Source of the DNA: an uncultured Clostridia bacterium
GTDB taxonomy: Bacteria; Bacillota; Clostridia; Oscillospirales; CAG-272
Reading direction: 5' to 3'
Assembly: GCA_947631765.1 (NCBI GenBank)
Contig: CANRMP010000007.1
Location: 72,647-136,646, forward strand
Length of the DNA stretch: 64,000 bases
Part shown: positions 1-37,344 of the stretch, piece by piece
Position numbering within the stretch: the first letter of the stretch is position 1
Layout: each line of letters starts with the position of its first letter
Position numbers and translations under genes: made by a program
The notes under the pieces: generated by a model
The model's input: only the letters and a program-made list of their open reading frames with translations
Databases searched by the model: none
Told to the model about the DNA's origin: nothing

Positions 1-142
1 GGGAATGGTAATGACTCTTATCGGAGTTATTCTCATGTGCATAATAAGAGGGAAAAAAGGCTCAAAATCCGACGACGACTCCAATGAGGACAAGCAAAGA
101 AAAAGCCGTCACGGCAAGCGCCGCAAAGAAGGGAAGTGTTAA
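1..142 (+). CDS. 3-prime end of a membrane protein. Its position suggests a ResB/Ccs1-type cytochrome c biogenesis partner. Partial; the start lies outside the window.
   Basis: The open frame 2..142 ends with TAA at 140-142. The tail GMVMTLIGVILMCIIRGKKGSKSDDD...KRRKEGKC is one TM helix plus a basic tail. It stops 3 nt before the ccsA ATG. Confidence 0.35.
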   Translation, partial: GMVMTLIGVILMCIIRGKKGSKSDDDSNEDKQRKSRHGKRRKEGKC

Positions 143-145
143 AAA

Positions 146-928
146 ATGAGCACGACCTTTCTAAAAGCTTTGATAATTGTCGGCGCCGTTTTATACTACG
201 CCGCGTTTGCGACAAGCTTTTCTAATAAAAAGCAGATAAAGACCCTCTCGGATGTTTTTTGGGGGCTGGGTTTTGCGATAAGTATTTCGATTGTTATAAA
301 CAACTGGGTTGTAAACGGCTACGTGCCTTTTGTCAGCATGTTTCAGGTGCTCACCTTCCTTGGCACCTGCTACACTCCGATATATTTGTATTTCAGCTTT
401 GCGAGAAACGGCAAATGGATGCGCCCGTATTTCATGTTTGCGCCCGCCTTTATAATGACCGGACTTTGCTTTATGGACGCAAATTCCGCTTGGGAGTATC
501 CTCCTGCGCTTCAATCCCCGTGGTTTGTGCCGCATGTGCTGATGTACATGATATCGTACACATTGGGCTTTGTCGCTTTTCTTATCTGCGTCATGTCGCT
601 CTTTGCAAAGAAAAAAGAGGACAGGCTGCGGCTTGAGGAGGGAGCATACGACTGCATTTGCATCGTTTTTCCCTTTATGACCTTCGGAATGTTTTTCGGG
701 GCGATATGGGCAAACGAAATATGGGGGCATTTTTGGTCGTGGGATACCAAGGAGAGCTGGTCGCTTGTCACTTGGCTTACATATATGCTGTACCTGCATT
801 TCAGGCGGCATAAATCCACAAAAAAATATGCGAAATATGTTGCAATGATAGGCTTTGTCGGAATAATTATCACCTTCTTCTTTGTGAACATGATGAACAG
901 TACGGGAAGTCACACTTATTCAGTTTGA
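146..928 (+). CDS. ccsA: Cytochrome c assembly protein CcsA/ResC family (System II haem handling)
   Basis: This 260-aa polytopic membrane ORF carries the Trp-rich WWD signature IWGHFWSWDTKESW (about 716-760), flanked by His-containing helices (PHVLMYM, YLHFRRH). Confidence 0.85.
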   Translation: MSTTFLKALIIVGAVLYYAAFATSFSNKKQIKTLSDVFWGLGFAISISIVINNWVVNGYVPFVSMFQVLTFLGTCYTPIYLYFSFARNGKWMRPYFMFAPAFIMTGLCFMDANSAWEYPPALQSPWFVPHVLMYMISYTLGFVAFLICVMSLFAKKKEDRLRLEEGAYDCICIVFPFMTFGMFFGAIWANEIWGHFWSWDTKESWSLVTWLTYMLYLHFRRHKSTKKYAKYVAMIGFVGIIITFFFVNMMNSTGSHTYSV

Positions 929-1007
929 GTTTTAATACATACGCTTAACCTTTAATTTTGATTTTAATTCAAAGTAAATTTAAACTTTTTTAAAGGAGGA
1001 ATAATAC

Positions 1008-3299
1008 ATGGAGAACATGGAAAACAAGGCTCCGGACAACAAAAAAGCAGAGAGCACGCCGGAAAATGGCGCGCCGCAGTCCGAAAGTCCGAATTCCGCT
1101 CCCAAGCAAAAAAGCGCAAAGCCACTCTCCGGTAAGACGATAGGCATAATTGCGGCGGCAGTCGCACTTGTGGCAATTATCGTTATCGTGATTGTGGTGC
1201 TCGCTATGAAAAAAGAGCCCGAGGTGGTTTTGCCCGACGGTGATTACACCTCGCCCACAGCCCTTGCAATGTCCGAGGACGGAGAAAATCTTTACATAGC
1301 GGACGCAACCGGCCGGTTTGTCTACAAGGTACGGCTCAGCGACAAAAAGGTTATCGCCGTGTATCGCACCGAGACCTCGGTTCAGGACGTTGCCGTTTCG
1401 GGAGAGAATGTGTTTGTTGCGGAAGGAGGACTCGGCGGAAAGCTTGTCAAGCTTAATGCCGACCTTGAAAAGCAGGGCGAGCTTGTGACGGGACACACGC
1501 CGACCGATATATGCGTTGTCGGAAATGTGGCGTACGTTGCAAACCGTTTTTCAAACACTGTCAGCTCTGTTGACATATCCGCAATGACGGAAAGCAAAAA
1601 TATTGCGGTTAGCCGCGAACCCGTAACTCTCACTCTTTCGGGCAGTGATTTGTACGTTGGATGTCTTTTGACCGACGATCCCGCAAATACCAATGACACT
1701 CGCGCCAAGGTATGCGTTATAAGCACTTCCTCGGGCGAGATGACAAACGTCATTGAGCTGCCAAACGGCGCTGAAAGCGTGCGCGGAATAATTGCGAGCA
1801 GCGACGGCTCAACCGTCTACGTTTCGCATATTGTGGGGCATTATCAGCTGCCTACCACTCAGCTTGATGCCGGATGGGTAAACACCAACGTAATATCGGT
1901 TATAGATACATCAAGCAAGAGCGTCAAATACAGCTACACTCTTGACGACGTGGATCTCGGCGCCGCCAATCCTTGGGGCTTGGCGCTTTCCGAGGATGAA
2001 AAAGAGCTTTATGTTGCGATTTCCGGAACAAATCAAGTAATTGTTGTAGACCTTAACAAAATGTCAACCCTTGTAAAAGCGGTTGAAAGAGGCACGTCCG
2101 GCATTGCAAAATCTCTTGACGAAATTTTAAACTACATTAATTTCGCCTCCTCCGCAAAGACTCGTCTTGACCTTTCGGGTGCGGGTGTGCGCACGGTTTT
2201 GTGCAGCGGCAGCAAGCTGTATGTCGGCGAGTATTTTGCAGGCAACGTTGAGGTGATTGACACCGAAAGCCTTGCTATAGTTGACGCAATAACCGTCAGA
2301 GAACAGAAGGAAAATGACCCTGTGAGGCTCGGAGAGCTCAGCTGGTACGACGCCACGCACTGCTATCAGATGTGGCAGTCCTGCAACAGCTGTCATCCCG
2401 ATGCGCGTGCCAGCGGTCTTTCCTGGGATGAGCTTGGCGACGGAATAGGAACCTCAAAGCAGACAAAAACAATGCTTTTTGCTACAAGAACTCCCCCATG
2501 CCTTGCAACCGGAGTTGAGCCTAACGCCGAGCACAACGTGTTCGGAAGCGTATCCGGAACTCCTCAATGGAATTCGGGCGATGAGGCTGAGACTATTTCA
2601 AATAACATTATCGCCTTCTTGAGATCGCTCATGCCGACTGCTTCACCCTATTTGAATAACGACGGAACGCTCACAGCGGCTGCCGAGCACGGCAAGGAGC
2701 TTTTCGCGCAGTACAACTGCACGGTATGTCATCCCGCTCCCTTCTATACCGACTTGAAGCCGCATAACATGGGAACGACCGATTTTGACTCTTCGTGGGA
2801 GTACCGCGATATCGACACTCCATCTCTTGTCGAAGCGTGGAGGAGTGCTCCGTGGACCTACACAGGGCATTTTAACAGCATGGTTGACTGCGTTAAATAC
2901 TTTGCAACAAGAAACGGCGGCACCATATCGGATGCCGACGCCAACGACCTTGCGGAGTATGTGCTCTCGATAGGTGCCGAGAATGAGCAGTACAGTGTGG
3001 TTCAGATAACCAACACGGACGATTCGTACAATACCTTCGACTCCTCGCTGAACATCAAGGCAATCTCGGTTGTAAAGCAGGCGGCGGGAGCGCCAAGCGG
3101 AACTCTCACCCTTACGATATGCGATGCCGACGGCAAGGCGCTGACAAGTACCTCTATTGAGCTTAGCGAATTGAAGTACGGAGTTGTTTGTGAATTTCCG
3201 CTTGAAAGCGAGCTTTCGACCTCAGGCGGCGCATATTACACAGTAACGATAACAGATTCGGACGGCAACAAGCTTGCATCCGATTTAAAGATTGATTAA
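1008..3299 (+). CDS. Membrane-anchored beta-propeller protein with a C-terminal di-haem cytochrome c peroxidase/MauG-like domain
   Basis: This 763-aa ORF has the RBS AAAGGAGG. It begins with a Pro/Ser-rich tail and a TM helix (IGIIAAAVALVAIIVIVIVVLAM). YncE/YVTN-like repeats follow (LYIAD, VFVAEGG, AYVANRF, LYVGC, VYVSH, LYVAISG). Two CxxCH motifs are in frame: CNSCH at 2382-2396 and CTVCH at 2718-2732. The segment DTPSLVEAWRSAPWTYTGHF resembles the CCP family. Confidence 0.8.
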   Translation: MENMENKAPDNKKAESTPENGAPQSESPNSAPKQKSAKPLSGKTIGIIAAAVALVAIIVIVIVVLAMKKEPEVVLPDGDYTSPTALAMSEDGENLYIADATGRFVYKVRLSDKKVIAVYRTETSVQDVAVSGENVFVAEGGLGGKLVKLNADLEKQGELVTGHTPTDICVVGNVAYVANRFSNTVSSVDISAMTESKNIAVSREPVTLTLSGSDLYVGCLLTDDPANTNDTRAKVCVISTSSGEMTNVIELPNGAESVRGIIASSDGSTVYVSHIVGHYQLPTTQLDAGWVNTNVISVIDTSSKSVKYSYTLDDVDLGAANPWGLALSEDEKELYVAISGTNQVIVVDLNKMSTLVKAVERGTSGIAKSLDEILNYINFASSAKTRLDLSGAGVRTVLCSGSKLYVGEYFAGNVEVIDTESLAIVDAITVREQKENDPVRLGELSWYDATHCYQMWQSCNSCHPDARASGLSWDELGDGIGTSKQTKTMLFATRTPPCLATGVEPNAEHNVFGSVSGTPQWNSGDEAETISNNIIAFLRSLMPTASPYLNNDGTLTAAAEHGKELFAQYNCTVCHPAPFYTDLKPHNMGTTDFDSSWEYRDIDTPSLVEAWRSAPWTYTGHFNSMVDCVKYFATRNGGTISDADANDLAEYVLSIGAENEQYSVVQITNTDDSYNTFDSSLNIKAISVVKQAAGAPSGTLTLTICDADGKALTSTSIELSELKYGVVCEFPLESELSTSGGAYYTVTITDSDGNKLASDLKID

Positions 3300-3311
3300 G
3301 GCGGTGAAAAT

Positions 3312-6300
3312 ATGAAGCTTAAGAATTTTATATCAAACAAAAAGTCCGTGCGGCTTATTTCGGTGCTTCTCATTGTTTTCTGTATTGCCGCGATTTTCGG
3401 TGCGACTGTTTTAACGAGCAATGCCGACACCGTGACCACTATTGACAACACCGATGAGGTCAAGGCGCTTATGTCCGAGGCGACGAGCTTTATTTTGGTT
3501 CGCCACAAACAGCTCGGCGGTTCTCACTATGCCTACACAGAGGGTGTTTCGGACGACTCGGGCGAGGTCAATTTCACCCCCGGCTCGATGCTCTGTCTTG
3601 TCACCCTTTCGGTTGACGACAAAAATCCCGACAAGGTGAAGGTCAGCGAGAAGGTGCTTTTAAGGTCTCCTAACGGAGTTATAAGAGATCCCGACGTTTC
3701 GGAGGACGGGACAAGAGTACTTTTCTCGCATAAAACAAGCTCAAACGACGACTTCCATCTCTATGAAATGGAAATTGCGACAAAAAAGACAACCCAGCTT
3801 ACTTTCGGCTCCGGAGTTGCGGACATTGAGCCGGTTTACGCCGGAAACGGAACGATAATATTCAACTCTACAAGAGACATTCAAACCGTCGACTGCTGGT
3901 ATACTCCCGTTTCCAATCTGTATATCTGCAATGCTGACGGAAGCAATATCACCCGCGTAGGCTACGATCAGGTGCACACAACCTATCCGACAGCTACAAC
4001 GGACGGAAGAATTTTATATACGCGCTGGGACTATAACGACAGAAACCAGATGTATATTCAGGCTCTGTTCCAGATGTTCCCCGACGGAACCGGTCAGACC
4101 GAGCTGTTCGGAAACAACTCCAACAACCCGTCAACTCTTCTTCATACAAGAGAGGTTCCCGGAAACTCCGAAAAGTATATTACGATTGTTTCCGGTCACC
4201 ACATGTATCAGGTTGGTAAGCTTGCAATAATTGACACGAGCAAGGGAAGAAACGGCACAACTCCGGTAAGCTATGTAAGGCAGGACAACGCCACAAGATC
4301 TCTTGCCAACCAAAGCACTCAAAGCGTTGACAACACTCTCTTCCAACAAGGCGACGTTTACAAATATCCGTATGCGATATCGGAAAACCTCTTCCTTGTT
4401 TCCATGTGTAAGAATTATAACGGGGACCGTTCCGCTCCCTTTGATATAGTCCTTATGAACAGCAAAGGAAAATATCAGACTCTTGTTAAAAATCAGGCGG
4501 ATTACCCCGCAAGCCAGTTTGTACCGATAAAGAGCGAAGAGCTCTTCACCCGTTCGAGCATGGTGAGCTATGCCGAAAAGACCGGAACATACTATGTGGC
4601 TGACGTATATCAGGGTGAGCCCATGAAGGGTATTGAGCGCGGTACCATTAAGTATCTGCGCGTTGTAGCTCTGAGCTTCCGTCCCTACGCTATAGGTGCG
4701 ACCAACGGTTACGGAACCGGTTCTGCCGACCCGTATTCACCGATAGCAACCGGTAACGGTTCATGGGATGTAAAACAAGTGCTTGGAATTGTGCCTGTCG
4801 AGGAGGACGGCTCGGCGCTATTCTCCGTTCCCTCGGAAACTCCGGTATATTTCCAGCTTCTTAACGAGAACGGCGATATGATTCAAACGATGCGCAGCTG
4901 GTCGACCCTACAGCCTGGAGAATATTTCTCTTGCGTCGGCTGCCATCTTGACAAAAACTCCGCGCCTCCCACCTCTCTCACGGTAACCGATGCGATGAAG
5001 AAGGGCGTTCAAGAGCTTCAGCCCGATCTCTGGATGTCTGTTGCCGACGAGTACAAGGATTTTGATCCTTATACCGATGAATATATCGGCTTTGACTATC
5101 TCTCCGTGGTTCAGCCCATACTTGACAGCACTTGTGTAACCTGTCACAGCAATACGCAGGACGCCTTCAAGAGAATCTCCATTGGCGATCTTAACGACAG
5201 CGAAAGAGAAACCGAAAGGGCTAGCACGGTTTTCGAAACAAACGAAGAGTGGAATTTCACAAAGGCAACTCCTTCAAACGACTGGACATCTCCTTCGTTC
5301 GATGACTCTGAGTGGAGCACCTCCTTTGCTCCTTTCGGTCAGGTTGCGACAAGACCAGGCAAAATAAGTACAGTCTGGAAGGACACCGACACTCTCTGGC
5401 TTAGAAAAACATTTAATTTGACCCAGTATGACTTTGAGGCGGGTACCCTGCAATTTTATCTTGCTCATTCCGGCTCGATTACGGTCTATGTAAACGGAAA
5501 AGAAGTGTATTCTTCCTCCTCGGCAATGTCCGAGTATACGATAGTTACCGTATCGCAGGAAAGAGACGCGTTTGTACTCGGTGAAAACGTCATTGCGGTT
5601 AAAGTTACCGGAAATTCAAGCGGAAGATATTTCGGGCTCTCCCTGCGCGCCCTCCCGCCCACATCCGAAGGTTCAGTCATTGATACCAGGGTTCTTGTGA
5701 ACAAAGGCGCCGAATGGACCTATTTTGTAAGTGCAAGCGACGACTTCGGCGAAAGCGGAGCATGGACCGGAATAGACTTCAATACCTCCGCGTGGAAAAA
5801 AGCAAATGCGCCTTTGGGAGCACGTGCGACCGGTGTTGCGGGTTCGGATTGGTGCGATGAAACTCCGTACATCTGGGCAAGGTATGAGTTTAATGTTGAT
5901 GACCCTAAAGACCTTGCAAAAGTGAACATTCATATGAATGCGTGGTTTGACGATGAAGTCGTTGTGTACATAAACGGCACCGAAATATTCAGAGATTCCG
6001 GCTGGAATGACGGTTACACAAATTACGACATTGACGCTCATGTGAACTTTGTCAGCGGCAAGAATGTTATTGCCGTCAGGCTGCATCAGCACTCGGGCGG
6101 CTATGAGTGGGATGCCGAGATTGTCGCCGACATTATGGACAGCAGTGTACTTTCCTCTAACGCTCCCGTTTCATTTGAGGGTATCGGAATTTACGCCTCC
6201 AGAATGCAGAAGTATTTCCCGCTCTCTTACCTTGTTCTTACCGGTTCTAAGCCCTCCGGCGGTGTGGAATGGATAAGCGAGGTAAACAACAGATATACAA

Positions 6301-7373
6301 GATATATTTCAACCATGTCTCAATGCGAGGTCTTGGGTCCCAAATCAGCGGGCTCTACCGTTTCTCTCATTATCAGAAAGCTCCGCCAGGGACACGTTGA
6401 GGGTCTGAGTAAAGAAGAAATCGCGGCGATCTCCTGCTGGATCGACCTTGCCGTACCTTGCTTCGGTTCGTATTCGCCCGAGGGCAATACCGAATGGGAC
6501 AACGGCAATGAAAGAGAAGCTATAGAGGAGAGCAACAAGCGCCATGTTTACGAGGTTCTTGACAAGTATGCAAAGCTTGACAGGGGCGACGTTCTGCCCG
6601 AGGGCGAAATAAAGGTTGAGTACCGTTCGCAGTCCGCAACGGGTAACGGATACGCAATTCTCTACACCGATACCGGTATTCGCGTCGGCTCGACAATAAA
6701 GGTAACTCTTCCCGAGGGAGTTCATTACTTTGGCCTTATGCTCAACTCAAGGCTCGGCGAGGCTGTAATATACACCCCGAACAGCACGTTCGAAATGACA
6801 ATTCCGAACGACTTTATCAGAGCCGTGCCTCAAACGTTTACCTCCATGAATTGCAGTACGATTATGGCAAGAATCGTGACGGACGACGAGCTTAATATGC
6901 GCCGCAACCTTGCGTATAATCCCCACGATCTGGCGGCAAATCAAAACGCCTTCCCGCATGTCGAAGCAAGCACTACCCTTAACGGGCAGACGGTATACGC
7001 CGGCAGAAACGTTATCGACGGCTTCGTTGCGAATCTGAGTAAGGGCGAGTACCCCACTCAAGCTTGGGAGCCCGGAACTCTCTCCGACAGCGACTACCTT
7101 ACAATTAATTACGGCAGAGAAGTTACTCTTGACGAACTTATAATTCTCATGAGATGCGCTTCGGGTGATACCTATTTCACCTCCTGTACCGTTGAATTTT
7201 CCGACGGAACCGAAATTGTCCTTTCAATGAAACAGTCTCAACATGAACAGCATTTTGATATCGGTTCCGTGACTACCACATACGTTAAGTTCAAAAACTT
7301 CGTTAAGGCTGAGGACGATAAAACGGTCGCTATAACCGAAATTCAGACCATGGGCGTCGATAAACTCGGTTAA
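3312..7373 (+). CDS. Very large exported PD40/TolB-like propeller protein with two CxxCH motifs, two tandem jelly-roll (galactose-binding-like) modules and a discoidin-like C-terminus
   Basis: This 1353-aa ORF starts 12 nt after the previous stop. It has an N-terminal anchor (LISVLLIVFCIAAIFGATVL). Propeller-like strings include DVSEDGTRVLFSH, TTDGRILYTRWDYNDR and MFPDGTGQ, which I recall as similar to HzsA-related proteins. CVGCH lies at 4932-4946 and CVTCH at 5133-5147. Duplicated modules lie at about 5235-5650 and 5697-6140. Confidence 0.8.
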   Translation: MKLKNFISNKKSVRLISVLLIVFCIAAIFGATVLTSNADTVTTIDNTDEVKALMSEATSFILVRHKQLGGSHYAYTEGVSDDSGEVNFTPGSMLCLVTLSVDDKNPDKVKVSEKVLLRSPNGVIRDPDVSEDGTRVLFSHKTSSNDDFHLYEMEIATKKTTQLTFGSGVADIEPVYAGNGTIIFNSTRDIQTVDCWYTPVSNLYICNADGSNITRVGYDQVHTTYPTATTDGRILYTRWDYNDRNQMYIQALFQMFPDGTGQTELFGNNSNNPSTLLHTREVPGNSEKYITIVSGHHMYQVGKLAIIDTSKGRNGTTPVSYVRQDNATRSLANQSTQSVDNTLFQQGDVYKYPYAISENLFLVSMCKNYNGDRSAPFDIVLMNSKGKYQTLVKNQADYPASQFVPIKSEELFTRSSMVSYAEKTGTYYVADVYQGEPMKGIERGTIKYLRVVALSFRPYAIGATNGYGTGSADPYSPIATGNGSWDVKQVLGIVPVEEDGSALFSVPSETPVYFQLLNENGDMIQTMRSWSTLQPGEYFSCVGCHLDKNSAPPTSLTVTDAMKKGVQELQPDLWMSVADEYKDFDPYTDEYIGFDYLSVVQPILDSTCVTCHSNTQDAFKRISIGDLNDSERETERASTVFETNEEWNFTKATPSNDWTSPSFDDSEWSTSFAPFGQVATRPGKISTVWKDTDTLWLRKTFNLTQYDFEAGTLQFYLAHSGSITVYVNGKEVYSSSSAMSEYTIVTVSQERDAFVLGENVIAVKVTGNSSGRYFGLSLRALPPTSEGSVIDTRVLVNKGAEWTYFVSASDDFGESGAWTGIDFNTSAWKKANAPLGARATGVAGSDWCDETPYIWARYEFNVDDPKDLAKVNIHMNAWFDDEVVVYINGTEIFRDSGWNDGYTNYDIDAHVNFVSGKNVIAVRLHQHSGGYEWDAEIVADIMDSSVLSSNAPVSFEGIGIYASRMQKYFPLSYLVLTGSKPSGGVEWISEVNNRYTRYISTMSQCEVLGPKSAGSTVSLIIRKLRQGHVEGLSKEEIAAISCWIDLAVPCFGSYSPEGNTEWDNGNEREAIEESNKRHVYEVLDKYAKLDRGDVLPEGEIKVEYRSQSATGNGYAILYTDTGIRVGSTIKVTLPEGVHYFGLMLNSRLGEAVIYTPNSTFEMTIPNDFIRAVPQTFTSMNCSTIMARIVTDDELNMRRNLAYNPHDLAANQNAFPHVEASTTLNGQTVYAGRNVIDGFVANLSKGEYPTQAWEPGTLSDSDYLTINYGREVTLDELIILMRCASGDTYFTSCTVEFSDGTEIVLSMKQSQHEQHFDIGSVTTTYVKFKNFVKAEDDKTVAITEIQTMGVDKLG

Positions 7374-7400
7374 AAGCTTAAAATTTTAAAATATTTAAAT

Positions 7401-7433
7401 AAGAGGCTGACGTTTAAACCGCGTCAGCCTCTT
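7401..7433 (+). terminator. Hairpin terminator after the 1353-aa gene
   Basis: A 12-bp stem AAGAGGCTGACG / CGTCAGCCTCTT encloses a 9-nt loop. The T-rich stretch (TATTTTGCTTTTTT) begins only about 8 nt later, so termination may be leaky. Confidence 0.55.
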
Positions 7434-7473
7434 TGCGCGTATTTTGCTTTTTTATCGTGAGAAAAAGGGAGTT

Positions 7474-7720
7474 TCGCGCTCTGCGGAGCGCGACGAGGGC
7501 TCAGCAGCCCCTCGACCCCGCCGGCTTTTGAAAAGCCGGGGAAACAAACGGGCGCTCGTGTAGTGCTAAGATGCGCTTTGCGCCGCGACAGAGTAAATGC
7601 CTTAGGCATTTACTCCATACGGTCAGAATATATATGCGGCGTCGCAAGCAAGCTTGCACGCCGTATATATATCCCTCCCTGCAAACCTTACGGTTTGCCC
7701 CGCGGCGCAAAGCTTGGTTT
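7474..7720 (+). ncRNA. Candidate structured RNA or hairpin cluster, including a four-way junction at 7575-7713. The family is unknown.
   Basis: Six strong hairpins lie at 7474-7493, 7494-7514, 7521-7539, 7591-7615, 7628-7672 and 7681-7698. A perfect 13-bp long-range helix (7575-7587 with 7701-7713) encloses the last three. The single G7636:T7664 pair is a wobble only on the + strand. A T-tract follows at 7717-7721. Confidence 0.3.
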
Positions 7721-7742
7721 TTCGACAACATTGCATATTTAT

Positions 7743-7771
7743 TTGCCAAAAATGGAATTGTGCAATACAAT
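7743..7771 (+). promoter_or_regulatory. Sigma-70-type promoter with no protein gene downstream (candidate sRNA promoter)
   Basis: TTGCCA (7743-7748), a 17-nt spacer and TACAAT (7766-7771). Confidence 0.4.
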
Positions 7772-7813
7772 ATGATTTTTCGGTCTGAAAAAGCATAATT
7801 GCTTCGTCGAAGT

Positions 7814-7851
7814 GCAAAGCCGCTCGTTTGAAGAGCGGCTTTGCGTGTTTT
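7814..7851 (+). terminator. Intrinsic terminator oriented for the + strand. It probably also serves the convergent esterase gene.
   Basis: A 12-bp stem GCAAAGCCGCTC (7814-7825) / GAGCGGCTTTGC (7833-7844) encloses the loop GTTTGAA and is followed by GTGTTTTTG. Confidence 0.6.
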
Positions 7852-7873
7852 GCGGCGGTCATATAACGCCGAT

Positions 7874-16234: not shown

Positions 16235-16261
16235 TAAATTTATCCTTATTTTGCAAAAGAT

Positions 16262-16618
16262 ATAAAACTGGGCATGTAAGCCGGGTTCTGTTTCGCATTT
16301 ATATGCGACTGCCGCCATCTATCTTGACTTTATGTTGCCATAAAGCTCTTTGCCACCCCCGAGCATATGTCGGGCAAACTGCCCATATGGGGTGTTGCTT
16401 CGGATAGGGTTTACACTTGCATCATGTTGCCATAATGCCGGTGAGCTCTTACCTCGCCTTTTCATCCTTACCGCATTGCGGCGGTTGTTTTCTGTTGCAC
16501 TTTCCCGGAGGTCGCCCTCGGCGGACGTTATCCGTTATCCTGCCCTGTGAAGCCCAGACTTTCCTCACGGTAATACCTTACGGCATGATACCGCGCGGCG
16601 GCACCGCCCAGTTTCTTC
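16262..16618 (-). ncRNA. rnpB: RNase P RNA (bacterial, about 357 nt)
   Basis: The minus strand reads GAGGAAAGTCTGGGCTTCACAGGGCAG (core at 16552-16566) and ACAGAACCCGGCTTAC (16276-16291). These match the universally conserved P4 and 3-prime elements. The P1 stem forms between GAAACTGGGC (5-prime) and GCCCAGTTTT (3-prime, 16264-16273). A consensus promoter lies directly upstream. Confidence 0.9.
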
Positions 16619-26845: not shown

Positions 26846-29335
26846 TTATTCGGTCGGGTTTGCGGGGTCATATGCCAAATATTGCTCCATCGTCGCTCCC
26901 CAGACAACTTTGATCGAACTGTTGCACCAATCCTTTGCCCATCCGGAAGGTCGCGCATTTGCCTCACAATAGATAACGGTGTTTTCATTACCGTAAAGTA
27001 CAACATCAAAAGCATACCCGCCCATTTTGACTACACTTGCAGGTATGTAGACTTTTTTCAGGGAGTAGCATGACATAAAAGCTTTTTCGTCGATTTCTTC
27101 GACGCTATCGGGAATGACGAGTTCGGTAAGGGTATGGCAGCTTTCAAAGGTGGCAGTCTCGATTTTTGTAATACCCTTTGGAATATGGATTTCGGTCAGG
27201 CTGTAACAACTGTCGAACGCAGATTCTCCGATTTCTGTTATGCCGTCGTTTAGGTTGATTGTTTTAAGAGCTGTGCAGTACCAAAACGCACTATCACCTA
27301 TTTTTTTAACTGTGTTCGGCATAATCACGGTTTCAAGAGCTTTAGCATTGCCGAAGGCAAAATAACCGATGGAGGTTACGCCCTCGGGAATCGTTATACT
27401 TTTCAAAGCTGCATTTTCGCTAAAGGCTTTTGGTCCGATTTCGGTAACTCCGTTTGGCAGAACTATATCGGGTGTACTTCCGTCATAGTCGGCGGCAACA
27501 ATGTTCCCGTTGTGCTGTACTGCATAGGTGACACCCTGACTGTCGGTTCTACACTCTTTTACATCGAAAATTAATCTATCAGGGTCAACACCAATATCTC
27601 TCTCGGAAAACTCGCAGCATATAAGTATGTAGTCTAATTCATAATATTCGAAGGCACCGTTAATTGAAGTCACATTTTCCGCAAGATAGACGTAATCAAT
27701 TATATTGCCGCCATAAAAGGCGTTTGCAGCTATGTTCATTGCAATATACAGTTTGGATTCCTTGCAGTCTCCGATGCCGACAATTTCTCCGTTGCTGATT
27801 TTCAGTCCACTTGTTTGTGTGGCAATCTTACCTTCTGAAACGACTGTATGAGAACCGGTGCCGTCGCGCAGATCATAGGTGTATGTGGCTTTGACGGTAT
27901 AAAGCTTAAGTTTATCCAGCCCGTCGACGCGGCGCGTACCTGTATTCAGCTTTTTGACAAGCTTTCCGCTATTGTCAAGCAGCTCGAGAGAAGTCAGCTT
28001 GCCGACAGAATTTTTATCCGCAATATTTATGGAAAACTCTATGTGCTCAAAAGACCAATCGGTCGGTGAAATGGTTAATTTGGGTACCGTATTCGTTGCC
28101 GTGGTAAACATCTGCTCCGTCTTATCCTCGTGACCTTCGCTTTCGAACCTTGCAATAAGCTTATAGGTATGTCCCGACAGCAGTCCGGTAACCTTTGTAG
28201 CGCTTGACGACAGCTTGGAAATCAGCTTATCCCCATCGTAGAGCTCCATAGAGGTGATAACCTTTTTGCCGACGTAGTCCTTTGCCCAGCTTGGCGTAAA
28301 GGAGACGGAGGTGTCGCCGATTTTCATGTCGCTAAAGGCAAAGACAAGCGGAGTTGCAGCGCTTTCTGCGGCAAGAATGTGAACCGCCTTCCCCTCGCCG
28401 TCCAAGGCGTCATAGAAGCCGATAACGCACACTCGGTACTCGGTATTTGATATAAGCCCGTCGAATTTGATTGTTGAGGGCATTTCTTTGAATATTTCCT
28501 GTCTGTAGAGAAGGTCGTCTCCGTCATAGATTGCCGCATAGAAGTTTCCGCCGAGCAGTCCGCGCAGTCCGAACGGGTCGTGCGCCGTCACCGTGCAGGT
28601 CACCGAATTGAAGTCGACCAATATGTTTTCAACAGTCGCGGTAGGCTGATTTTCGGTGTAAACCCCTATTTCTACAGTGCGCTCACCCTGCATACGAACG
28701 TCCTTTATTTTCTCTCCGTCAACATACTTTATGGCGTCGATTGTGTATTCGACAAGCCCCTCTGCATCCCCTACGTTGCATTTGAGAATCAGATTTTCCA
28801 TATCCGAGCCTGTCTCAAACATGTAGGATGAGTATTTGACTCCGTTGAGGGTGAACGAGAGAATTTCATAGTTGTTCGGGTTCGAAACGTGTACCGTTAT
28901 GTAGAAATCCTCGTTGGGCTTTGCGTAGAACAGCTCTGTGTCGTTGCCCTTTGACACTTCGTTTGCGTATTTTTCTTCATACTTTGCTTTGATGCTGTCC
29001 TTGACGTCCTTATCGTCTGTTTCATCTCCTGCCGCAAGCAGGGATATACCGAGCTTATTTCCGCTTAGCGCAACTTCGCCCTGCTCGTTTTCGGAGGACA
29101 GGGTCATTCCGGTGTAAACGGGAATGTTTTTGTTGTTATTCCAAATAAGGAAAACTACCGATGCGCCGATAACAAGGCAAAGAGTTGCGGCAAGCGTTGA
29201 AATCCAGCCGGCTTTACCGAAACGCTTCGTCTTTGCGCCGCCTTTTCTCAGGTAGTAATTGTACCTTATTGCCGCGCAGGCGTCAATTAAATCGTCCGAG
29301 ATGTTTTTTAGTATTTTCAGCTTTTTGTCATGCAT
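26846..29335 (-). CDS. Single-pass membrane protein (putative anti-sigma factor) with FN3/Ig-like repeats and a C-terminal BspA-type leucine-rich repeat domain
   Basis: This 829-aa ORF overlaps the sigma gene stop by 8 nt. A roughly 45-aa cytoplasmic head is followed by a TM helix (ISTLAATLCLVIGASVVFLIW). The C-terminal repeats follow the pattern I.IP.GVT.IG..AF..C..L. Confidence 0.7.
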   Translation of the reverse strand: MHDKKLKILKNISDDLIDACAAIRYNYYLRKGGAKTKRFGKAGWISTLAATLCLVIGASVVFLIWNNNKNIPVYTGMTLSSENEQGEVALSGNKLGISLLAAGDETDDKDVKDSIKAKYEEKYANEVSKGNDTELFYAKPNEDFYITVHVSNPNNYEILSFTLNGVKYSSYMFETGSDMENLILKCNVGDAEGLVEYTIDAIKYVDGEKIKDVRMQGERTVEIGVYTENQPTATVENILVDFNSVTCTVTAHDPFGLRGLLGGNFYAAIYDGDDLLYRQEIFKEMPSTIKFDGLISNTEYRVCVIGFYDALDGEGKAVHILAAESAATPLVFAFSDMKIGDTSVSFTPSWAKDYVGKKVITSMELYDGDKLISKLSSSATKVTGLLSGHTYKLIARFESEGHEDKTEQMFTTATNTVPKLTISPTDWSFEHIEFSINIADKNSVGKLTSLELLDNSGKLVKKLNTGTRRVDGLDKLKLYTVKATYTYDLRDGTGSHTVVSEGKIATQTSGLKISNGEIVGIGDCKESKLYIAMNIAANAFYGGNIIDYVYLAENVTSINGAFEYYELDYILICCEFSERDIGVDPDRLIFDVKECRTDSQGVTYAVQHNGNIVAADYDGSTPDIVLPNGVTEIGPKAFSENAALKSITIPEGVTSIGYFAFGNAKALETVIMPNTVKKIGDSAFWYCTALKTINLNDGITEIGESAFDSCYSLTEIHIPKGITKIETATFESCHTLTELVIPDSVEEIDEKAFMSCYSLKKVYIPASVVKMGGYAFDVVLYGNENTVIYCEANARPSGWAKDWCNSSIKVVWGATMEQYLAYDPANPTE

Positions 29336-31118: not shown

Positions 31119-33968
31119 TTATCGCTTTTTCTTTCTTACAACCGCAAAATATACAATGCAAAGCACAGTCAAGGCGACAACAACGCCGCCCGCAATAAAG
31201 GCGGGAATAATAAAGCTCTGACCTTTTGAGCTGTCATCGTTTGAGCTTTCACTTGAACTGTCGCCGGGGATAATGGGCGCGGTACTCTGCGAGCCGCCCT
31301 GTGTTTTTTGGGTAGTTATGCTTGTTGTTTTTTTGCCGTCGGTTACTGGAGTCACTGGACCCTCCGGCTTTGTTGACGGGGGAGAGGTGGGCTCGGGCTC
31401 TGTTGTGACTGTCGGAGCTAGCGGCAGAGTTGTCTGTGTGGGCTTTGGTGTTGTCTGCTCTTGAGGCTTTTTGGTGGTTATTTCAGGTGGCTTTACTGTG
31501 GTTTCGTTAGGCTTCTTCGTCGTTACCTCGGGAGGCTTTACCGGCGTGTCGCCTCCTTGCTGAGGCGGCGGGTCGGGGATGTTTGAATTATCGTCCTCAT
31601 ATCCGCTAATATAGCTGCCTAAGGTCGGAGAGGGGCGTTTTTCCCCGTCCTTATAGACCGAAATATAGTTAATGTCATAAATATAGTCGCCCTGATAAAG
31701 GTAGACTGTTATGACGTTCACTCCGTTTGTAAGCTCACTGCCAGAAGCGTTAAGGGTTTTTGCGGTGTTTGCCGAGAGATTTATTTTGTCCCTGCAAGCT
31801 CCGTTAAGCCAAATCTGCGCCTTGCAGTCATAATCCGAGGTCACCGAGATTGTAAAAGACGAGAAGGGAAGCGCCAGCGTATAATCCGCAAGCTTATTTT
31901 TTGCCGCAACATTTCCGCTAAGCGACAGAGAGAGTGTTCCGTTTGTGTGCATTCCGAAATTTTCAATATCGGGATCGCGGAATGAAAACTGCTGATCAAG
32001 CCAATATATGCGGTTTTTAAGGAAGGTTTTAAGCTGATTACATTCGTCTTTAAAGGACCTTCCGCCGGTGCGCCCTGCAAAATCGGTTTCGTAAGGGTCC
32101 TTTGAAAACTTGTCGTACTCAAGCACCGAGGCTTTATAGAGCATATCGTAGTAATAATCTATGCTGTTTACCATGTCGTCAAGCGCGCCCGAAAGCTGAC
32201 TCCATCTTTCCTTTACAAGTGACACAAAATACGGATCGCCGTAAAGCTCACGATACCACTTGTTGTTTTGTGCTCTCCAGTCGTTGTACCACATAAAATA
32301 GTCGCCGCTTGCGCCGAGAAAGGGATTGCCCGACGACCAGTCGTAGTCCCAGCAGGGTCCGAAGACTATTTTATTGTCGCTGTTTATGTACATATACATC
32401 GACTTGTAGCCGAATTCGACGTTAAGAATGACCGTGTTTAAGATATAGCAGTCGACAAGTGAATTTATATCAACGTATTCGGTGTAATGCTTTCCCTTTG
32501 AATTTGTGAAGTTATCGCCAAGGCAAGCTTCCTCAAAATCGTTGAAAAAGCCAACGATATATTCAAAAAGGGCAGGGTTTGTCTTTATTGCCTCCATGTT
32601 CGAGACCTTGAGAGGCACGTTATTATTTGTATAGAAAAAGCTGTCCTCATCGCTGTAGCCGTCATATTCTATAAGATATCCGGTGTAAATCGAGTAGGTG
32701 GAGGTGTCGACATAATCCGAGAGGTTGTACCCCTCGAATTTTCCCGAGGTCAGCCAGGACATATCGGCGCACAGCCTGTCTTCAAGCTCCGACTGTCGGT
32801 TTTCGTCAAAGCCGTATTTTTCGGCAACGCCCGCGGCAAAATCCTCTGCGATATCCTCCCAGTCGGTGACCTCGCCGTCAAAAAGATCGGTGTCGACCTT
32901 TTGAGTCAGAGCATATGTGCCCATATACTCTCCGTTGAGCACGAGATTGACGTATACCGACTTGCAGAAAACCATGCCCATTTGACCGGAAAGGTCATAG
33001 ATAAGCTTGTTTCGCATCATAGTGCGGTCCATGTAATTTGAAATAAGTACCCATTTTTTGCTCTTTCCCATGCCGAAAAGATCCGCTTTTTGGGAAAGCT
33101 TAATGGTATACGGCACCTTTCTTGTGTGGGTGTCGCCCGGAAGGGTGTTTAACTTACCGTCGGGGTAACCGTTGTTCCAGGTGGAATTTCCGCGCCCCTT
33201 TATTTTGATTGCCGCGCCTTCCTTTGTGAAAACGTTTGAATACTTTGAATATGAATTTGAAAGCTCTATGCGCATTGCGGCGTCTTTATAGCTTATGCGC
33301 GAGGTGACGTAATCGCCGTCCGAAGTGTTTATATAAACTGTCGAAAGTCCGGTTTCGGAAAGCTGATTTTCGCTGACAGAAGGCGGCGGGTCATTTGGCG
33401 GCTGCTCGGCACTTGGCGTGCGCATAATGAGCGACATGTCAAACTCTCGTCCGCCCGCATCGTCTTCAAGAGAAATTGCAAGCGTATTGCTTCCGCTTTT
33501 AAGATAATCTTTAAGATTAAGGGGAAGGTCGATATATCCGTCAACCCACCCGACGTCATAGAAAATTTCCGCACCGTTAAGATAAACCGTCATGGTGTTA
33601 TCGTAAAAAATATTTGCAATAAATTCTTTTTCCCGGGCTTTGTTAAGATCTTTTATATCAAAGGTTGTAACAAGCAAAAGCACGTGATTTTCAGCTGCCC
33701 AGCCCGAGCCGTTGTAAGGGTCGATCCTGTCTCCGAACGGTGAGACCTTGCTGTCCCAATCCTTGACAAAGGCGGAGCCCTGTATCCAGTCTGAGGGCAT
33801 GTCCGTGAAATCCCACACGGTCATTGTGCGGTATTTCCACTCGGTCACGCCAGCCTCAATGAGCACAACGATGTCATCCTCCTCGGCACTGCACAAAATG
33901 AGCACCGAAAGCAGAGCGGCAATAACGACGAGCACAAGCGCGGCTATAATGATTTTCTTTCTTTTCAT
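31119..33968 (-). CDS. CotH-like kinase family protein with an N-terminal jelly-roll module, a Pro/Thr-rich linker and a C-terminal TM anchor
   Basis: CotH-like strings include KKWVLISNYMDRTMMRNKL and GPCWDYDWSSGNP. There is an N-terminal signal or anchor. The linker contains VKPPEVTTKKPNETT / VKPPEITTKKPQEQTT. The C-terminus is IIPAFIAGGVVVALTVLCIVYFAVVRKKKR. I prefer the Met3 start (RBS GAGGA). Confidence 0.75.
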   Translation of the reverse strand: MKRKKIIIAALVLVVIAALLSVLILCSAEEDDIVVLIEAGVTEWKYRTMTVWDFTDMPSDWIQGSAFVKDWDSKVSPFGDRIDPYNGSGWAAENHVLLLVTTFDIKDLNKAREKEFIANIFYDNTMTVYLNGAEIFYDVGWVDGYIDLPLNLKDYLKSGSNTLAISLEDDAGGREFDMSLIMRTPSAEQPPNDPPPSVSENQLSETGLSTVYINTSDGDYVTSRISYKDAAMRIELSNSYSKYSNVFTKEGAAIKIKGRGNSTWNNGYPDGKLNTLPGDTHTRKVPYTIKLSQKADLFGMGKSKKWVLISNYMDRTMMRNKLIYDLSGQMGMVFCKSVYVNLVLNGEYMGTYALTQKVDTDLFDGEVTDWEDIAEDFAAGVAEKYGFDENRQSELEDRLCADMSWLTSGKFEGYNLSDYVDTSTYSIYTGYLIEYDGYSDEDSFFYTNNNVPLKVSNMEAIKTNPALFEYIVGFFNDFEEACLGDNFTNSKGKHYTEYVDINSLVDCYILNTVILNVEFGYKSMYMYINSDNKIVFGPCWDYDWSSGNPFLGASGDYFMWYNDWRAQNNKWYRELYGDPYFVSLVKERWSQLSGALDDMVNSIDYYYDMLYKASVLEYDKFSKDPYETDFAGRTGGRSFKDECNQLKTFLKNRIYWLDQQFSFRDPDIENFGMHTNGTLSLSLSGNVAAKNKLADYTLALPFSSFTISVTSDYDCKAQIWLNGACRDKINLSANTAKTLNASGSELTNGVNVITVYLYQGDYIYDINYISVYKDGEKRPSPTLGSYISGYEDDNSNIPDPPPQQGGDTPVKPPEVTTKKPNETTVKPPEITTKKPQEQTTPKPTQTTLPLAPTVTTEPEPTSPPSTKPEGPVTPVTDGKKTTSITTQKTQGGSQSTAPIIPGDSSSESSNDDSSKGQSFIIPAFIAGGVVVALTVLCIVYFAVVRKKKR

Positions 33969-34124
33969 ACCCATTCAATCCTCGCATATTGCTTAACTGT
34001 AATCAGTATATCATATAAAAAGTATTATGTCAAACATTTTAAGAGTAAGTCGGCGCAAAAAAGCAATATTTTGCCGATTTTCAAAAGAACAATAATTTGA
34101 TATAAAACTAAGCAAGAAAAGACC

Positions 34125-37100: not shown

Positions 37101-37344
37101 CGGAAATCTCTCCTACATCCACAAGGTTGTGGACGGACGGCACCTCTATTTTATCGGCAATTCCTCAGACACTAAAATCGACTTGGAAATCACCCTGCGC
37201 GGCAAATTTGAAGTGCTGGAGCTTTGGGACCCCGCCACCGGCGAGCGCACGCTTGTTGAAACCTCTGTAAACGGCGATTCCACCGCATTAAATTTGACCA
37301 TGGACAAGGTGAGCTCGTACATCCTTATCGAAAGCGCAAGCTGA
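34186..37344 (+). CDS. Large lipoprotein, putative glycoside hydrolase scaffold (GH106-like, tentative) with two tandem F5/8 type C (discoidin/CBM32-like) modules
   Basis: The lipobox is LLLTLIGCG. Two copies of AFDGNP(N/E)TRWN start at 34882 and 35308. The flanking regions (FFWNVPLSEM..., GILPYWLDGY, IPGVDLITYYG) resemble large uncharacterised or rhamnosidase-like hydrolases from memory. Confidence 0.65.
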   Translation: MKKQFLKSAVSSILLLTLIGCGRTPATSTQGGTTMNTNDPALSENDKLYAEFKNPDEHLKTKPLFFWNVPLSEMTTDGIREIVRRSYQESGYNGFGILPYWLDGYLSEEYFDLYEAALDEGSKYGMQFSLYDEDGFPSYTAGGLFAEKYPSLTAHRLDKYEVEAKAGDKVFLRLPQGVLLSAVAMNTATKERIDISKYASIVKLPDFDPESQPIGPIASSVYTVEDGYEADKAFDGNPNTRWNALSYSGNREWIGINYGKEVTFDSVKVYEDKNPVVQRVRAFDVQYWNGSEWKTVASGTTVTDKGVELKFEPVKAQFVRLYCRKISGDSSSITELEIYSNGKRLDTPKPEQSDSAKPGYSCSSIYDGNYDAEKAFDGNPETRWNSARGASVNEWLMASFGRTVEINRAVISEALDRISSFTIEYFDGQGWKVAASGSTIGINKIVDFAPVTTDRMRLVVSTPNGELPSIYELAFFNGDEKIIPVNQADENYKGSRIEFTVPADWEGTWKIMGFLSVLEGSEGMDYLDSDAVAGYIEITHEAYYKRFKKYFDNGTITTSFYDEPSFYPANENYGVEGSRMWTDSFNEFYKSRFDGEDPALLYPALWYDIGEDTTAARDRLLGTRSEMFAKNYIGQIDSWCTSHGISLMGHMLMEEQINPLPLEGDLMLSFKYQTIPGVDLITYYGFSQEAYKIISSSAQNWDKTLVMCEAFGAMGEGISPDILYKGTIDLLAKGINLIVPHAVWYDNTKNVVFPPELSYRNPNYSKMLSDYNTYEARIASLLQRQGSHVADIALLYPIDSLESDYTFDVQMTQPGYANYMKIGEYLSLTARRDFTYLHPQILDGCTVENGMLTMTNKINTERFKVVIIPGMTRISLSNLEKIYSFWQAGGSVISVGKLPTAGIERSEDARVKEILTEMFGADPASVTGNIENIGEWGKAFHVSAATGLGSVLDKATESPDVAIKPSKAQLSGGNLSYIHKVVDGRHLYFIGNSSDTKIDLEITLRGKFEVLELWDPATGERTLVETSVNGDSTALNLTMDKVSSYILIESAS

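Follow-up and report, generated by a model that had tools for sequence, protein, structure and literature searches.

A hydrazine synthase-like haem protein pair with its own maturation cassette in an uncultured gut Clostridium

One end of a 64-kb stretch of DNA (contig CANRMP010000007.1, positions 72,647 to 136,646; here called the window) from an uncultured spore-forming gut Clostridium raises the question of why a bacterium with a fermenter-like gene content, as judged by the adhE and sporulation genes in the window, should encode large surface proteins bearing the haem c attachment motif CxxCH, and what such proteins might do. The start of the window holds the distal portion of a cassette of five genes, namely an araC-type regulator gene, resB, ccsA, an hzsBC-like gene and an hzsA-like gene, the last two of which encode relatives of the beta-gamma and alpha subunits of hydrazine synthase (HZS), an enzyme that, to our knowledge, was long held to be without relatives. 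That the pair are HZS-like haem proteins with a maturation cassette of their own is a conclusion in which we place very high confidence. The family is thereby seen to be abundant also in fermentative spore-forming Clostridia of the gut and rumen, which are not expected to make c-type cytochromes.

Relationship to hydrazine synthase

The protein encoded at 1008-3299 on the forward strand (ORF2, for open reading frame 2; 763 aa) has as its closest solved structures by sequence two subunits of the HZS of Kuenenia stuttgartiensis, 5c2v_B (HzsB) over aa 79-419 with an E-value of 9e-18, and 5c2v_C (HzsC) over aa 435-590 with one of 8e-12. A profile made from 64 homologues of ORF2 gave 3.3e-27 for HzsB and 1.6e-27 for HzsC, the best dihaem cytochrome c peroxidase (CCP), 3o5c, following at 2.7e-17, and the best families in NCBIfam were hydrazine_BC (5.5e-24), hydrazine_beta (3e-21) and gamma (1.9e-13). 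The protein encoded at 3312-7373 on the same strand (ORF3, 1353 aa) matches Pfam HZS_alpha at 2.5e-31. An AlphaFold2 (AF2) model of its residues 1-1200 (pLDDT 86.6, pTM 0.82; a second ORF3 model had a pLDDT of 90.8) returned HzsA (5c2v_A) as its top Foldseek match, with an E-value of 3.7e-23 over about 700 aligned columns, a TM-score of 0.55 normalised to HzsA and 16% identity, followed by TolB propellers and next by GH2 jelly-roll domains. Chains A, B and C of 5c2v were the only close matches to the pair in a sequence search of the PDB. On this evidence ORF2 is a fused beta-gamma homologue of HZS, and ORF3 an alpha homologue with a predicted propeller, an HZS_alpha middle domain and two putative haem c sites.

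In alignments with the crystallised HZS (5c2v), each of the four CxxCH motifs of the pair falls on one of the four motifs that bind haem there. Those of ORF2 lie at 2382-2396 (gamma-I-like) and 2718-2732 (gamma-II-like), and both align with a CxxCH of HzsC; in ORF3 the alpha-I-like motif at 4932-4946 ends the middle domain, its CVGCH aligning with CSGCH of HzsA, and the alpha-II motif FDYLSVVQPILDSTCVTCH at 5133-5147 is aligned with VDFRRDIQPILDAKCAMCH of HzsA. Exactly two CxxCH, about 110 residues apart, are present in every one of the 120 beta-gamma homologues listed, and two are kept by 111 of 120 alpha homologues; alpha-II has been lost in six that retain alpha-I, and C541, C544 and H545 of the alpha-I site are invariant among homologues. 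Chance occurrence was considered as an explanation and rejected, given an expectation of about 0.003 per protein from the Cys and His content, the near-invariance of the motifs in homologues and their alignment to solved haem sites. No other CxxCH was found in the credible window ORFs of at least 150 aa, nor in the flanking ORFs of 33 related loci (0/281).

Both proteins start with a hydrophobic anchor, as do 118 of 120 homologues of each. In ORF2 this is a segment at aa 45-67 (1140-1208), predicted to be a type II-like anchor, with a Kyte-Doolittle 19-residue maximum of 3.6 at aa 47 and preceded by a charged tail of 44 residues. In ORF3 it is a signal peptide or signal anchor at aa 1-37 (3312-3422), with a hydrophobic segment at aa 15-34, an AF2 helix at aa 10-34 and a possible cleavage site between SNA and D. 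The preliminary description of this DNA had picked out the four motifs and the two N-terminal anchors, and the motifs are exactly at the positions it gave, with an anchor at the start of each protein; their conservation in the homologues is as given above.

Beyond its anchor ORF2 consists of an HzsB-like, seven-bladed YVTN-type beta-propeller (aa 79-419; 1242-2264), indicated by the PDB, profile and hydrazine_beta matches, an HzsC or CCP/MauG-like dihaem module (aa 435-655; 2310-2972), and a C-terminal extension of about 108 aa (2973-3296) that is confined to the Clostridial clade, non-Clostridial relatives ending near aa 655 in tblastn matches and Clostridial ones reaching aa 758-762. The C-terminal half has the two-haem fold and the TPxL...P(Y/W)...G motif region of the bacterial dihaem CCP/MauG proteins, but unlike them it follows a propeller in the same chain, has an alpha partner, lacks the inter-haem Trp and stands nearer to HzsC than to any CCP.

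The pair shares with the HZS of K. stuttgartiensis (5c2v) the propeller, middle and cytochrome domains of alpha, the seven-bladed propeller of beta, the CCP-like dihaem module of gamma and four CxxCH at homologous positions; it has the beta-gamma fusion of the Ca. Scalindua enzyme and the gene order of anammox HZS, beta-gamma and then alpha (PMC12758564). It differs in being only about 16-25% identical, in having a Gram-positive host, in the membrane or cellulosome anchoring of the proteins, and in the two jelly rolls, the beta-sandwich and the discoidin module that are added in ORF3. The differences extend to the residues of the active sites, for which PDB chain numbers were converted to published HZS numbering by adding 39 in gamma and 27 in alpha. 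In HZS the alpha-I haem is ligated by Tyr591, four residues after the CxxCH, and the His is displaced to a Zn site; ORF3 reads CVGCHLDKN here, with no Tyr at +4 (the family consensus being CHEDKN), and because there is no equivalent of Tyr591 a canonical His ligand is expected. The third thioether residue of HZS, gamma-Cys165, falls in a 12-residue HZS-specific insertion that is missing from the ORF2 family, and gamma-His144 aligns with A500 of ORF2, a position that is variable in the family.

Could the cassette nevertheless encode a genuine hydrazine synthase, and with it a cryptic anammox-type formation of N-N bonds in a Clostridium? The identical subunit folds, the same four haem sites and the shared gene order might encourage such a view, but the identity to HzsA is only about 16%, the HZS-specific residues are missing, and the scores fall far under the NCBIfam equivalog cut-offs (hydrazine_BC 84 against 1250, alpha 49 against 800, beta 76 against 560, gamma 50 against 625). 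Nor were HDH/HAO-type multihaem genes or other anammox partners found nearby, no further ORF with a CxxCH being present in the 64-kb window or in the 33 related loci. Judged by its sequence the cassette enzyme is not a hydrazine synthase, and this explanation can be regarded as effectively refuted.

Two studies, those of Hagglund et al. 2025 (PMC12758564) and a 2023 study of a subsea tunnel (PMC10732223), have reported co-localised alpha and fused beta-gamma homologues outside anammox bacteria, in Planctomycetota, Desulfobacterota, Acidobacteriota, Verrucomicrobiota and KSB1, the pairs of Phycisphaerae UBA1845 and KSB1 being those of the earlier study (PMC10732223). In the conclusion of both, none of these homologues is a hydrazine synthase, and the family may have other substrates. 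The preliminary description could not match the locus to any described system, a statement that no longer holds, as the pair is homologous to HZS alpha and beta-gamma by NCBIfam, PDB, profile and Foldseek comparison and an HZS-like family outside anammox had already been reported (PMC12758564, PMC10732223). The main text of PMC12758564 is silent on Clostridia and its supplementary table contains about seven weak Oscillospirales hits, beyond which a literature search for Clostridial or dockerin-bearing cytochromes and HZS-like proteins yielded nothing relevant.

The cassette proteins resemble the published pairs (clades I-IV of PMC12758564; PMC10732223) in the co-localisation of alpha with a fused beta-gamma, the loss of the HZS catalytic residues, the canonical alpha-I site and the two gamma CxxCH. 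The published pairs, in contrast, are Gram-negative, usually have alpha upstream, often with an FG-GAP gene in between, and have no linked biogenesis genes; clade I of PMC12758564 carries 4-8 extra haems, unlike the cassette; and the non-Clostridial relatives fetched here bear an FGE-sulfatase or Laminin_G_3 domain in place of the jelly-roll insertion. Clades I-III have the inter-haem Trp at the position of gamma-His144 (PMC12758564), and since this position is occupied by a variable small residue in the Clostridial proteins (A500 here), it is suggested that the Clostridial clade lies outside clades I-III. The Clostridial cassette is a new variant of the HZS-like kind, Gram-positive, surface-displayed and self-maturing.

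Organisation of the cassette and its maturation genes

Three forward-strand ORFs lie at 146-928, 1008-3299 and 3312-7373, with intergenic gaps of 79 and 12 nt, and a cut ORF in frame 2 stops at 142, 3 nt ahead of the ATG of ccsA. The operon is closed at 7401-7433 (forward strand) by an intrinsic-terminator-like hairpin whose 12-nt inverted repeat is perfect and whose energy is about -23.5 kcal/mol, with a T-rich tract behind it. The ORF coordinates and gaps of the preliminary description are borne out by the window sequence; of its statement that this hairpin is the only terminator, the hairpin stands, but a pattern scan also finds a few weak 5-bp terminator-like sites within the ORFs, in numbers no higher than in shuffled sequence.

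The cut ORF (1-142, forward strand) is the 3' end of resB, encoding the Ccs1/ResB protein of system II cytochrome c biogenesis, severed by the window edge. Its translation terminates in ...VLVGMVMTLIGVILMCIIRGKK...KC followed by the stop, and is identical to the C-terminus of a 340-aa Pfam ResB protein encoded on contigs with the same ccsA. On those contigs that extend further upstream the gene for this 340-aa protein ends 3 nt 5' of ccsA, and an AraC/cupin regulator gene is found on the same strand 5' of resB. The ccsA gene (146-928, forward strand) encodes a haem-handling WWD protein, matching Pfam Cytochrom_C_asm at 5e-36, with the WWD stretch IWGHFWSWDTKESW at 716-757; against TIGR03144 it scores 157 bits, under the cut-off of 187.6. 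Residues H130, H218 and H256 of CcsA, together with those of the WWD stretch, are at least 90% conserved among 23 cassette homologues, and the transmembrane (TM) histidine H75 of ResB is conserved across 24 cassette ResBs. The preliminary description had recognised ccsA by its WWD signature and had taken the conservation of its haem-ligand histidines and the existence of a ResB partner as points on which its reading would turn; the signature and the histidines are both in place, and the objection that there might be no ResB partner fails because a Pfam ResB gene directly precedes ccsA.

ResB and CcsA together constitute a system II biogenesis apparatus, which would export haem and attach it to the four CxxCH sites on the two secreted or anchored proteins. 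In their Pfam domains (ResB and Cytochrom_C_asm), their WWD motif and the conservation of the P-His, TM-His and ResB TM histidines they agree with system II (ResB/Ccs1 plus ResC/CcsA), but the cassette proteins are unusually compact (ResB 229-364 aa, CcsA about 260 aa), fall under the TIGR03144 cut-off, are encoded without ResA/CcdA genes within the cassette and appear to be dedicated to two client proteins. Their presence raises the question of the haem source in cassette-bearing organisms.

Modular structure of the alpha-like protein

The first folded part of ORF3 is a TolB/HzsA-type beta-propeller (aa ~90-430; 3579-4601), indicated by NCBIfam matches, conservation, AF2 and Foldseek. Its invariant polar residues include D194-C195-W196, R238-W239-D240-Y241-N242-D243-R244 and H296-H297, with H72-Y73-A74-Y75 invariant just N-terminal of it, and because so many polar residues are invariant the propeller fits a functional surface rather than a scaffold. 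The HZS_alpha middle domain follows at aa 444-545 (4641-4946; Pfam 3.1e-33 when scanned alone), and after it the first half of the alpha-II cytochrome c domain, which contains the second CxxCH, at aa 586-638 (5067-5225).

Within this cytochrome domain are inserted two tandem jelly rolls, GH2-N or galactose-binding-like by AF2 and Foldseek, at aa 639-807 and 829-943 (5226-6140), which are 32% identical to one another (E 1e-13) and hold invariant Trp, Asp and Asn residues. The cytochrome halves consequently lie about 350 residues apart in ORF3, as against about 50 in non-Clostridial alpha homologues when located with hidden Markov models (HMMs) of both halves, and jelly-roll HMMs gave no match at the insertion position in those homologues. 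The second half (aa 959-1056; 6186-6479) has conserved GH (H1028) and WIDLxVP motifs, the GH histidine being a candidate distal haem ligand, and its HMM matches 26 of 31 non-Clostridial alpha homologues directly past their CxxCH. A long helix and a third beta-sandwich (aa 1064-1188; 6501-6875), seen in the AF2 secondary structure and without a Pfam match, lead to a C-terminal F5/8 type C (discoidin, CBM32-like)/DUF7402 module (aa 1216-1350; 6957-7361), which scores 32.7 bits against a cut-off of 28.2 for F5_F8_type_C and 26.6 bits for DUF7402, and matches neuropilin b1b2 in Foldseek. The propellers, jelly rolls and discoidin-like end that the preliminary description had seen in the large proteins have therefore held up, and the HzsA middle domain, which it had named as a possible match, is present.

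A glycoside hydrolase domain in ORF3 was considered and rejected, as the GH2, GH106 and rhamnosidase matches in Foldseek span only the non-catalytic jelly-roll or carbohydrate-binding (CBM) parts with low TM-scores. Recent shuffling of the discoidin module from the CBM32 of the genome's own GH106 was likewise rejected, the similarity being just weak. The latter gene, at 34186-37344 of the window (forward strand), encodes a GH106 alpha-L-rhamnosidase with two strong F5/8-type-C modules, so that the host puts this module type on ordinary carbohydrate-active enzymes (CAZymes) too.

The two proteins of the window have no Pfam match to dockerin, and in relatives a type I dockerin (Dockerin_1) is found above the Pfam cut-off both on alpha and on beta-gamma, with FIVAR, ricin B and Big_2 modules as further additions. 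The carbohydrate-binding-type modules of the preliminary description are in this way substantiated as modules, their binding being predicted. The jelly-roll pair in the alpha-II domain and the C-terminal discoidin, together with the dockerin, FIVAR and ricin modules of relatives, are the hallmarks of the Clostridial form. In their CBM32/F5-8C, GH2-N-type jelly-roll, ricin B, FIVAR, Big_2 and type I dockerin modules, as in their AraC-type regulator, these proteins resemble the modular and cellulosomal CAZymes of gut Firmicutes, but no glycoside hydrolase, lyase or esterase catalytic domain occurs in the cassette proteins and the catalytic core of the cassette is instead a c-type haem complex. 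No report of a c-type haem complex among dockerin proteins was found in the literature. Decoration in the style of CAZymes implies the presence of haem c proteins on cellulosomes and hints at glycan redox chemistry under anoxia.

Distribution and conservation of the cassette

The scan covered one genome per species, in which at least 565 genomes had a beta-gamma relative, and the best 80 of these loci were examined. Among the 80 were 32 from Clostridia metagenome-assembled genomes (MAGs), mostly of herbivore hindgut or rumen origin (rabbit, deer, goat, sheep) and labelled Lachnospiraceae, Oscillospiraceae, Ruminococcus, Acutalibacteraceae, Howiella or Metaruminococcus. The nearest beta-gamma relative among the matches listed is 69% identical. 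In a neighbour-joining tree the beta-gamma proteins of Clostridia group together as a single clade, with 37-46% identity inside the clade and at most 47% to others, and the protein of the window is 35-40% identical to its counterparts in PVC, Hydrogenedentes and Nitrospirota. With 1096 clusters at 50% identity and E-values up to 1e-30, the core family of alpha is very large.

The order resB-ccsA-betagamma-alpha was found in nearly all Clostridial loci with sufficient upstream DNA. Across 33 Clostridial loci just five ORF families are conserved, namely beta-gamma (33), alpha (28), ResB (24), CcsA (23) and AraC (15); alpha lies directly downstream of beta-gamma in 28 and the contig ends within or before alpha in the other five. 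Further conserved neighbours were sought in these loci and none emerged besides AraC, ResB and CcsA. Because there are only these five families, and none of the 281 other ORFs has a CxxCH, the cassette looks self-contained and dedicated to two clients. This agrees with the preliminary description, which had proposed a self-contained operon for the maturation of its own surface haem enzymes, a proposal that gains from the upstream ResB, the conserved synteny and the lack of any other CxxCH nearby; the co-occurrence of the genes in related genomes, on which it had wished to see its reading checked, is found as resB-ccsA-betagamma-alpha in 23-24 of the 33 loci. As a minimal self-sufficient unit of one regulator, two maturation and two structural genes, the cassette is the simplest available system for the study of HZS-like function.

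Several observations bear on the partnership of the two large proteins. In the cassette their genes are separated by a gap of 12 nt, and alpha adjoins beta-gamma in many other phyla too. One protein of the representative library (P0289, 1440 aa) combines HZS_alpha, a lactonase/YVTN propeller, CCP_MauG and a cytochrome c domain in a single chain, and because this is a natural fusion of alpha with beta-gamma it supports a physical partnership.

In non-Clostridial relatives the beta-gamma protein is 600-650 aa long and alpha is usually encoded directly upstream; biogenesis genes were absent from the vicinity of the non-Clostridial pairs fetched. Their alphas often have a C-terminal FGE-sulfatase domain (PF03781; E 1e-39 to 1e-46) or an N-terminal Laminin_G_3. 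Those with the FGE-sulfatase domain are at L065 5761-9855, L060 3158-7210, L041 3746-7765, L063 5383-9633 and L059 5176-9177, in MAGs labelled Planctomycetales, Hydrogenedentes, Nitrospiraceae and, in one case, unclassified bacterium, and further alpha-like proteins were seen with Laminin_G_3, with SBP_bac_10/DUF1559, or with Peptidase_M23 and PKD.

Possible function and alternative explanations

By homology, both proteins would assemble on the outer face of the membrane as an HZS-like alpha/beta-gamma complex. Such a complex would have two reaction centres, the CCP/MauG-like gamma-I-like haem and a His-ligated alpha-I-like haem in the middle domain of alpha, with gamma-II and alpha-II presumably acting as relay haems. 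Our best guess is that the jelly rolls and the discoidin module, along with the dockerin, FIVAR and ricin modules of relatives, serve to keep the enzyme on glycan, where its redox chemistry may be driven by diffusible co-substrates such as peroxide, a soluble reductant or a small N- or O-oxide, and would not be driven by a respiratory chain. The chemistry put forward in the preliminary description, removal of peroxide or oxidative attack on a polymer, is one possibility among several. Diffusible co-substrates are probable because there is no electron-transfer partner in the cassette, the host is fermenter-like and the dockerin versions are off the membrane. Action on or next to glycan is suggested by the CAZyme-like modules, the AraC-type regulator and the glycan-degrading neighbours (GH89, GH106, GH18 and a sulfatase). 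Taken as a whole, this picture of identity, assembly and a glycan-held redox role is on balance the one to be favoured, while the glycan-directed redox role, taken alone, is put forward tentatively and at somewhat less than even strength. A bolder step, and a rather doubtful one, would be to see in the Clostridial HZS-like complex a so far unrecognised class of redox enzyme that strict anaerobes direct at carbohydrates. The complex would then be a c-type haem 'auxiliary activity' of the cell surface or of cellulosomes that modifies or cleaves glycan, or acts on a glycan substituent bearing N or S, with a small co-substrate that one haem activates before it passes to the other.

A number of considerations weigh against the glycan-held redox enzyme that we favour. 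The ccdA and resA thiol-reduction genes, for which the preliminary description had proposed a search upstream of the window, were found neither in the cassette nor among the annotated window genes, although other parts of the genome could hold them, or a reducing habitat could make them dispensable; nor were genes for the biosynthesis or uptake of haem found in the window. In about five Clostridial loci resB and ccsA are not adjacent to the pair; at one of these, in the Clostridiales MAG GCA_012840445.1 (L089 7714-14857), the pair lies amid housekeeping genes with no adjacent resB/ccsA or AraC gene, from which it follows that the biogenesis genes need not be linked in every lineage. ORF2 itself scores 17.6 against the Pfam CCP_MauG cut-off of 25.6, and the Trp relay of CCP/MauG is missing from its family. 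No flanking CAZyme is conserved across the 33 loci. The lectin-type modules and dockerins could serve simply to retain the enzyme on a Gram-positive cell, which has no periplasm, in which case they say nothing about the substrate.

It is possible, if rather unlikely, that the complex is a surface reductase that detoxifies nitrogen oxides, such as nitric oxide (NO) and nitrite-derived hydroxylamine, from nitrate-rich forage or from the host. The gamma-I haem would reduce NO as in HZS, alpha-I would dispose of the intermediate, for instance by conversion of hydroxylamine to ammonium, and the lectin modules and dockerins would merely retain the enzyme on the cell wall. HZS, the only characterised relative and the closest solved structure, does reduce NO at haem gamma-I (PMC12607021), both relay haems are kept, and the Clostridial hits are mostly from herbivore gut and rumen MAGs. 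Set against this, the gamma-Cys165, gamma-His144 and alpha-Tyr591 of HZS chemistry are missing, no electron donor is encoded in the cassette, dockerin-tethered homologues are away from the membrane, the accompanying regulator is of the AraC/cupin type and not an NO or nitrite sensor, and lectin-type modules occur also on Gram-negative homologues, for which wall retention is not needed. We consider it more improbable still that the pair is an extracellular CCP-type peroxidase that clears H2O2 for an oxygen-sensitive anaerobe, with alpha as its electron-donating cytochrome. The match of the C-terminal half of ORF2 to the dihaem CCP 3o5c in the profile comparison would fit such an enzyme, as would the 30.6-35.5 bits with which homologues pass the CCP_MauG cut-off; but HzsC ranks above every CCP in that comparison, and where CCP/MauG function requires an inter-haem Trp, the family has a small residue that varies (A500 in ORF2), as placed by profile alignment and the mapping of PMC12758564. 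A partner of 1353 aa whose propeller is invariant and whose open-site haem domain is conserved also exceeds the needs of an electron donor, and the six alpha homologues without haem alpha-II, among 120, have retained alpha-I. The prospects are very poor for an electron-transfer conduit or terminal reductase that serves a soluble or insoluble extracellular acceptor, in the manner of the surface cytochromes of Gram-positive metal reducers. Although c-type haems predicted to be surface-exposed on a membrane-anchored protein, in a cassette with its own maturation system, are what such a conduit might look like, there are just four haems across 2100 residues, two of them by homology in enzyme-like pockets, the loci encode neither a quinol-oxidising partner nor a membrane cytochrome, and dockerin-tethered homologues have no membrane contact.

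Other features of the window and of related loci

Just upstream of the window (L001 2623-7714, reverse strand) a divergent cluster next to the AraC gene encodes two Gfo/Idh/MocA oxidoreductases and three AP_endonuc_2 (xylose-isomerase-like TIM) proteins, a combination common to just 3-4 of the 33 loci and one that we take to resemble 3-keto-glycoside or C-glycoside deglycosylation loci. Farther upstream of this cluster are genes for a 1661-aa GH89 (NAGLU) protein with CBM96 and F5/8C modules and for a SASP. Downstream of the cassette in the window is a non-coding stretch of 440 bp (7434-7873) between convergent terminators at 7401-7433 and 7814-7844, within which a perfect 12+12 palindrome is located at 7591-7615; Rfam gave no match in this stretch or in the cassette region. 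Elsewhere the window encodes an 829-aa leucine-rich-repeat protein beside a sigma-70 r2 gene (26846-29335, reverse strand), a 951-aa CotH-kinase-like protein (31119-33974, reverse strand) and, at 16261-16614 on the reverse strand, a class A bacterial RNase P RNA, whose 267 bits compare with a gathering score of 100.

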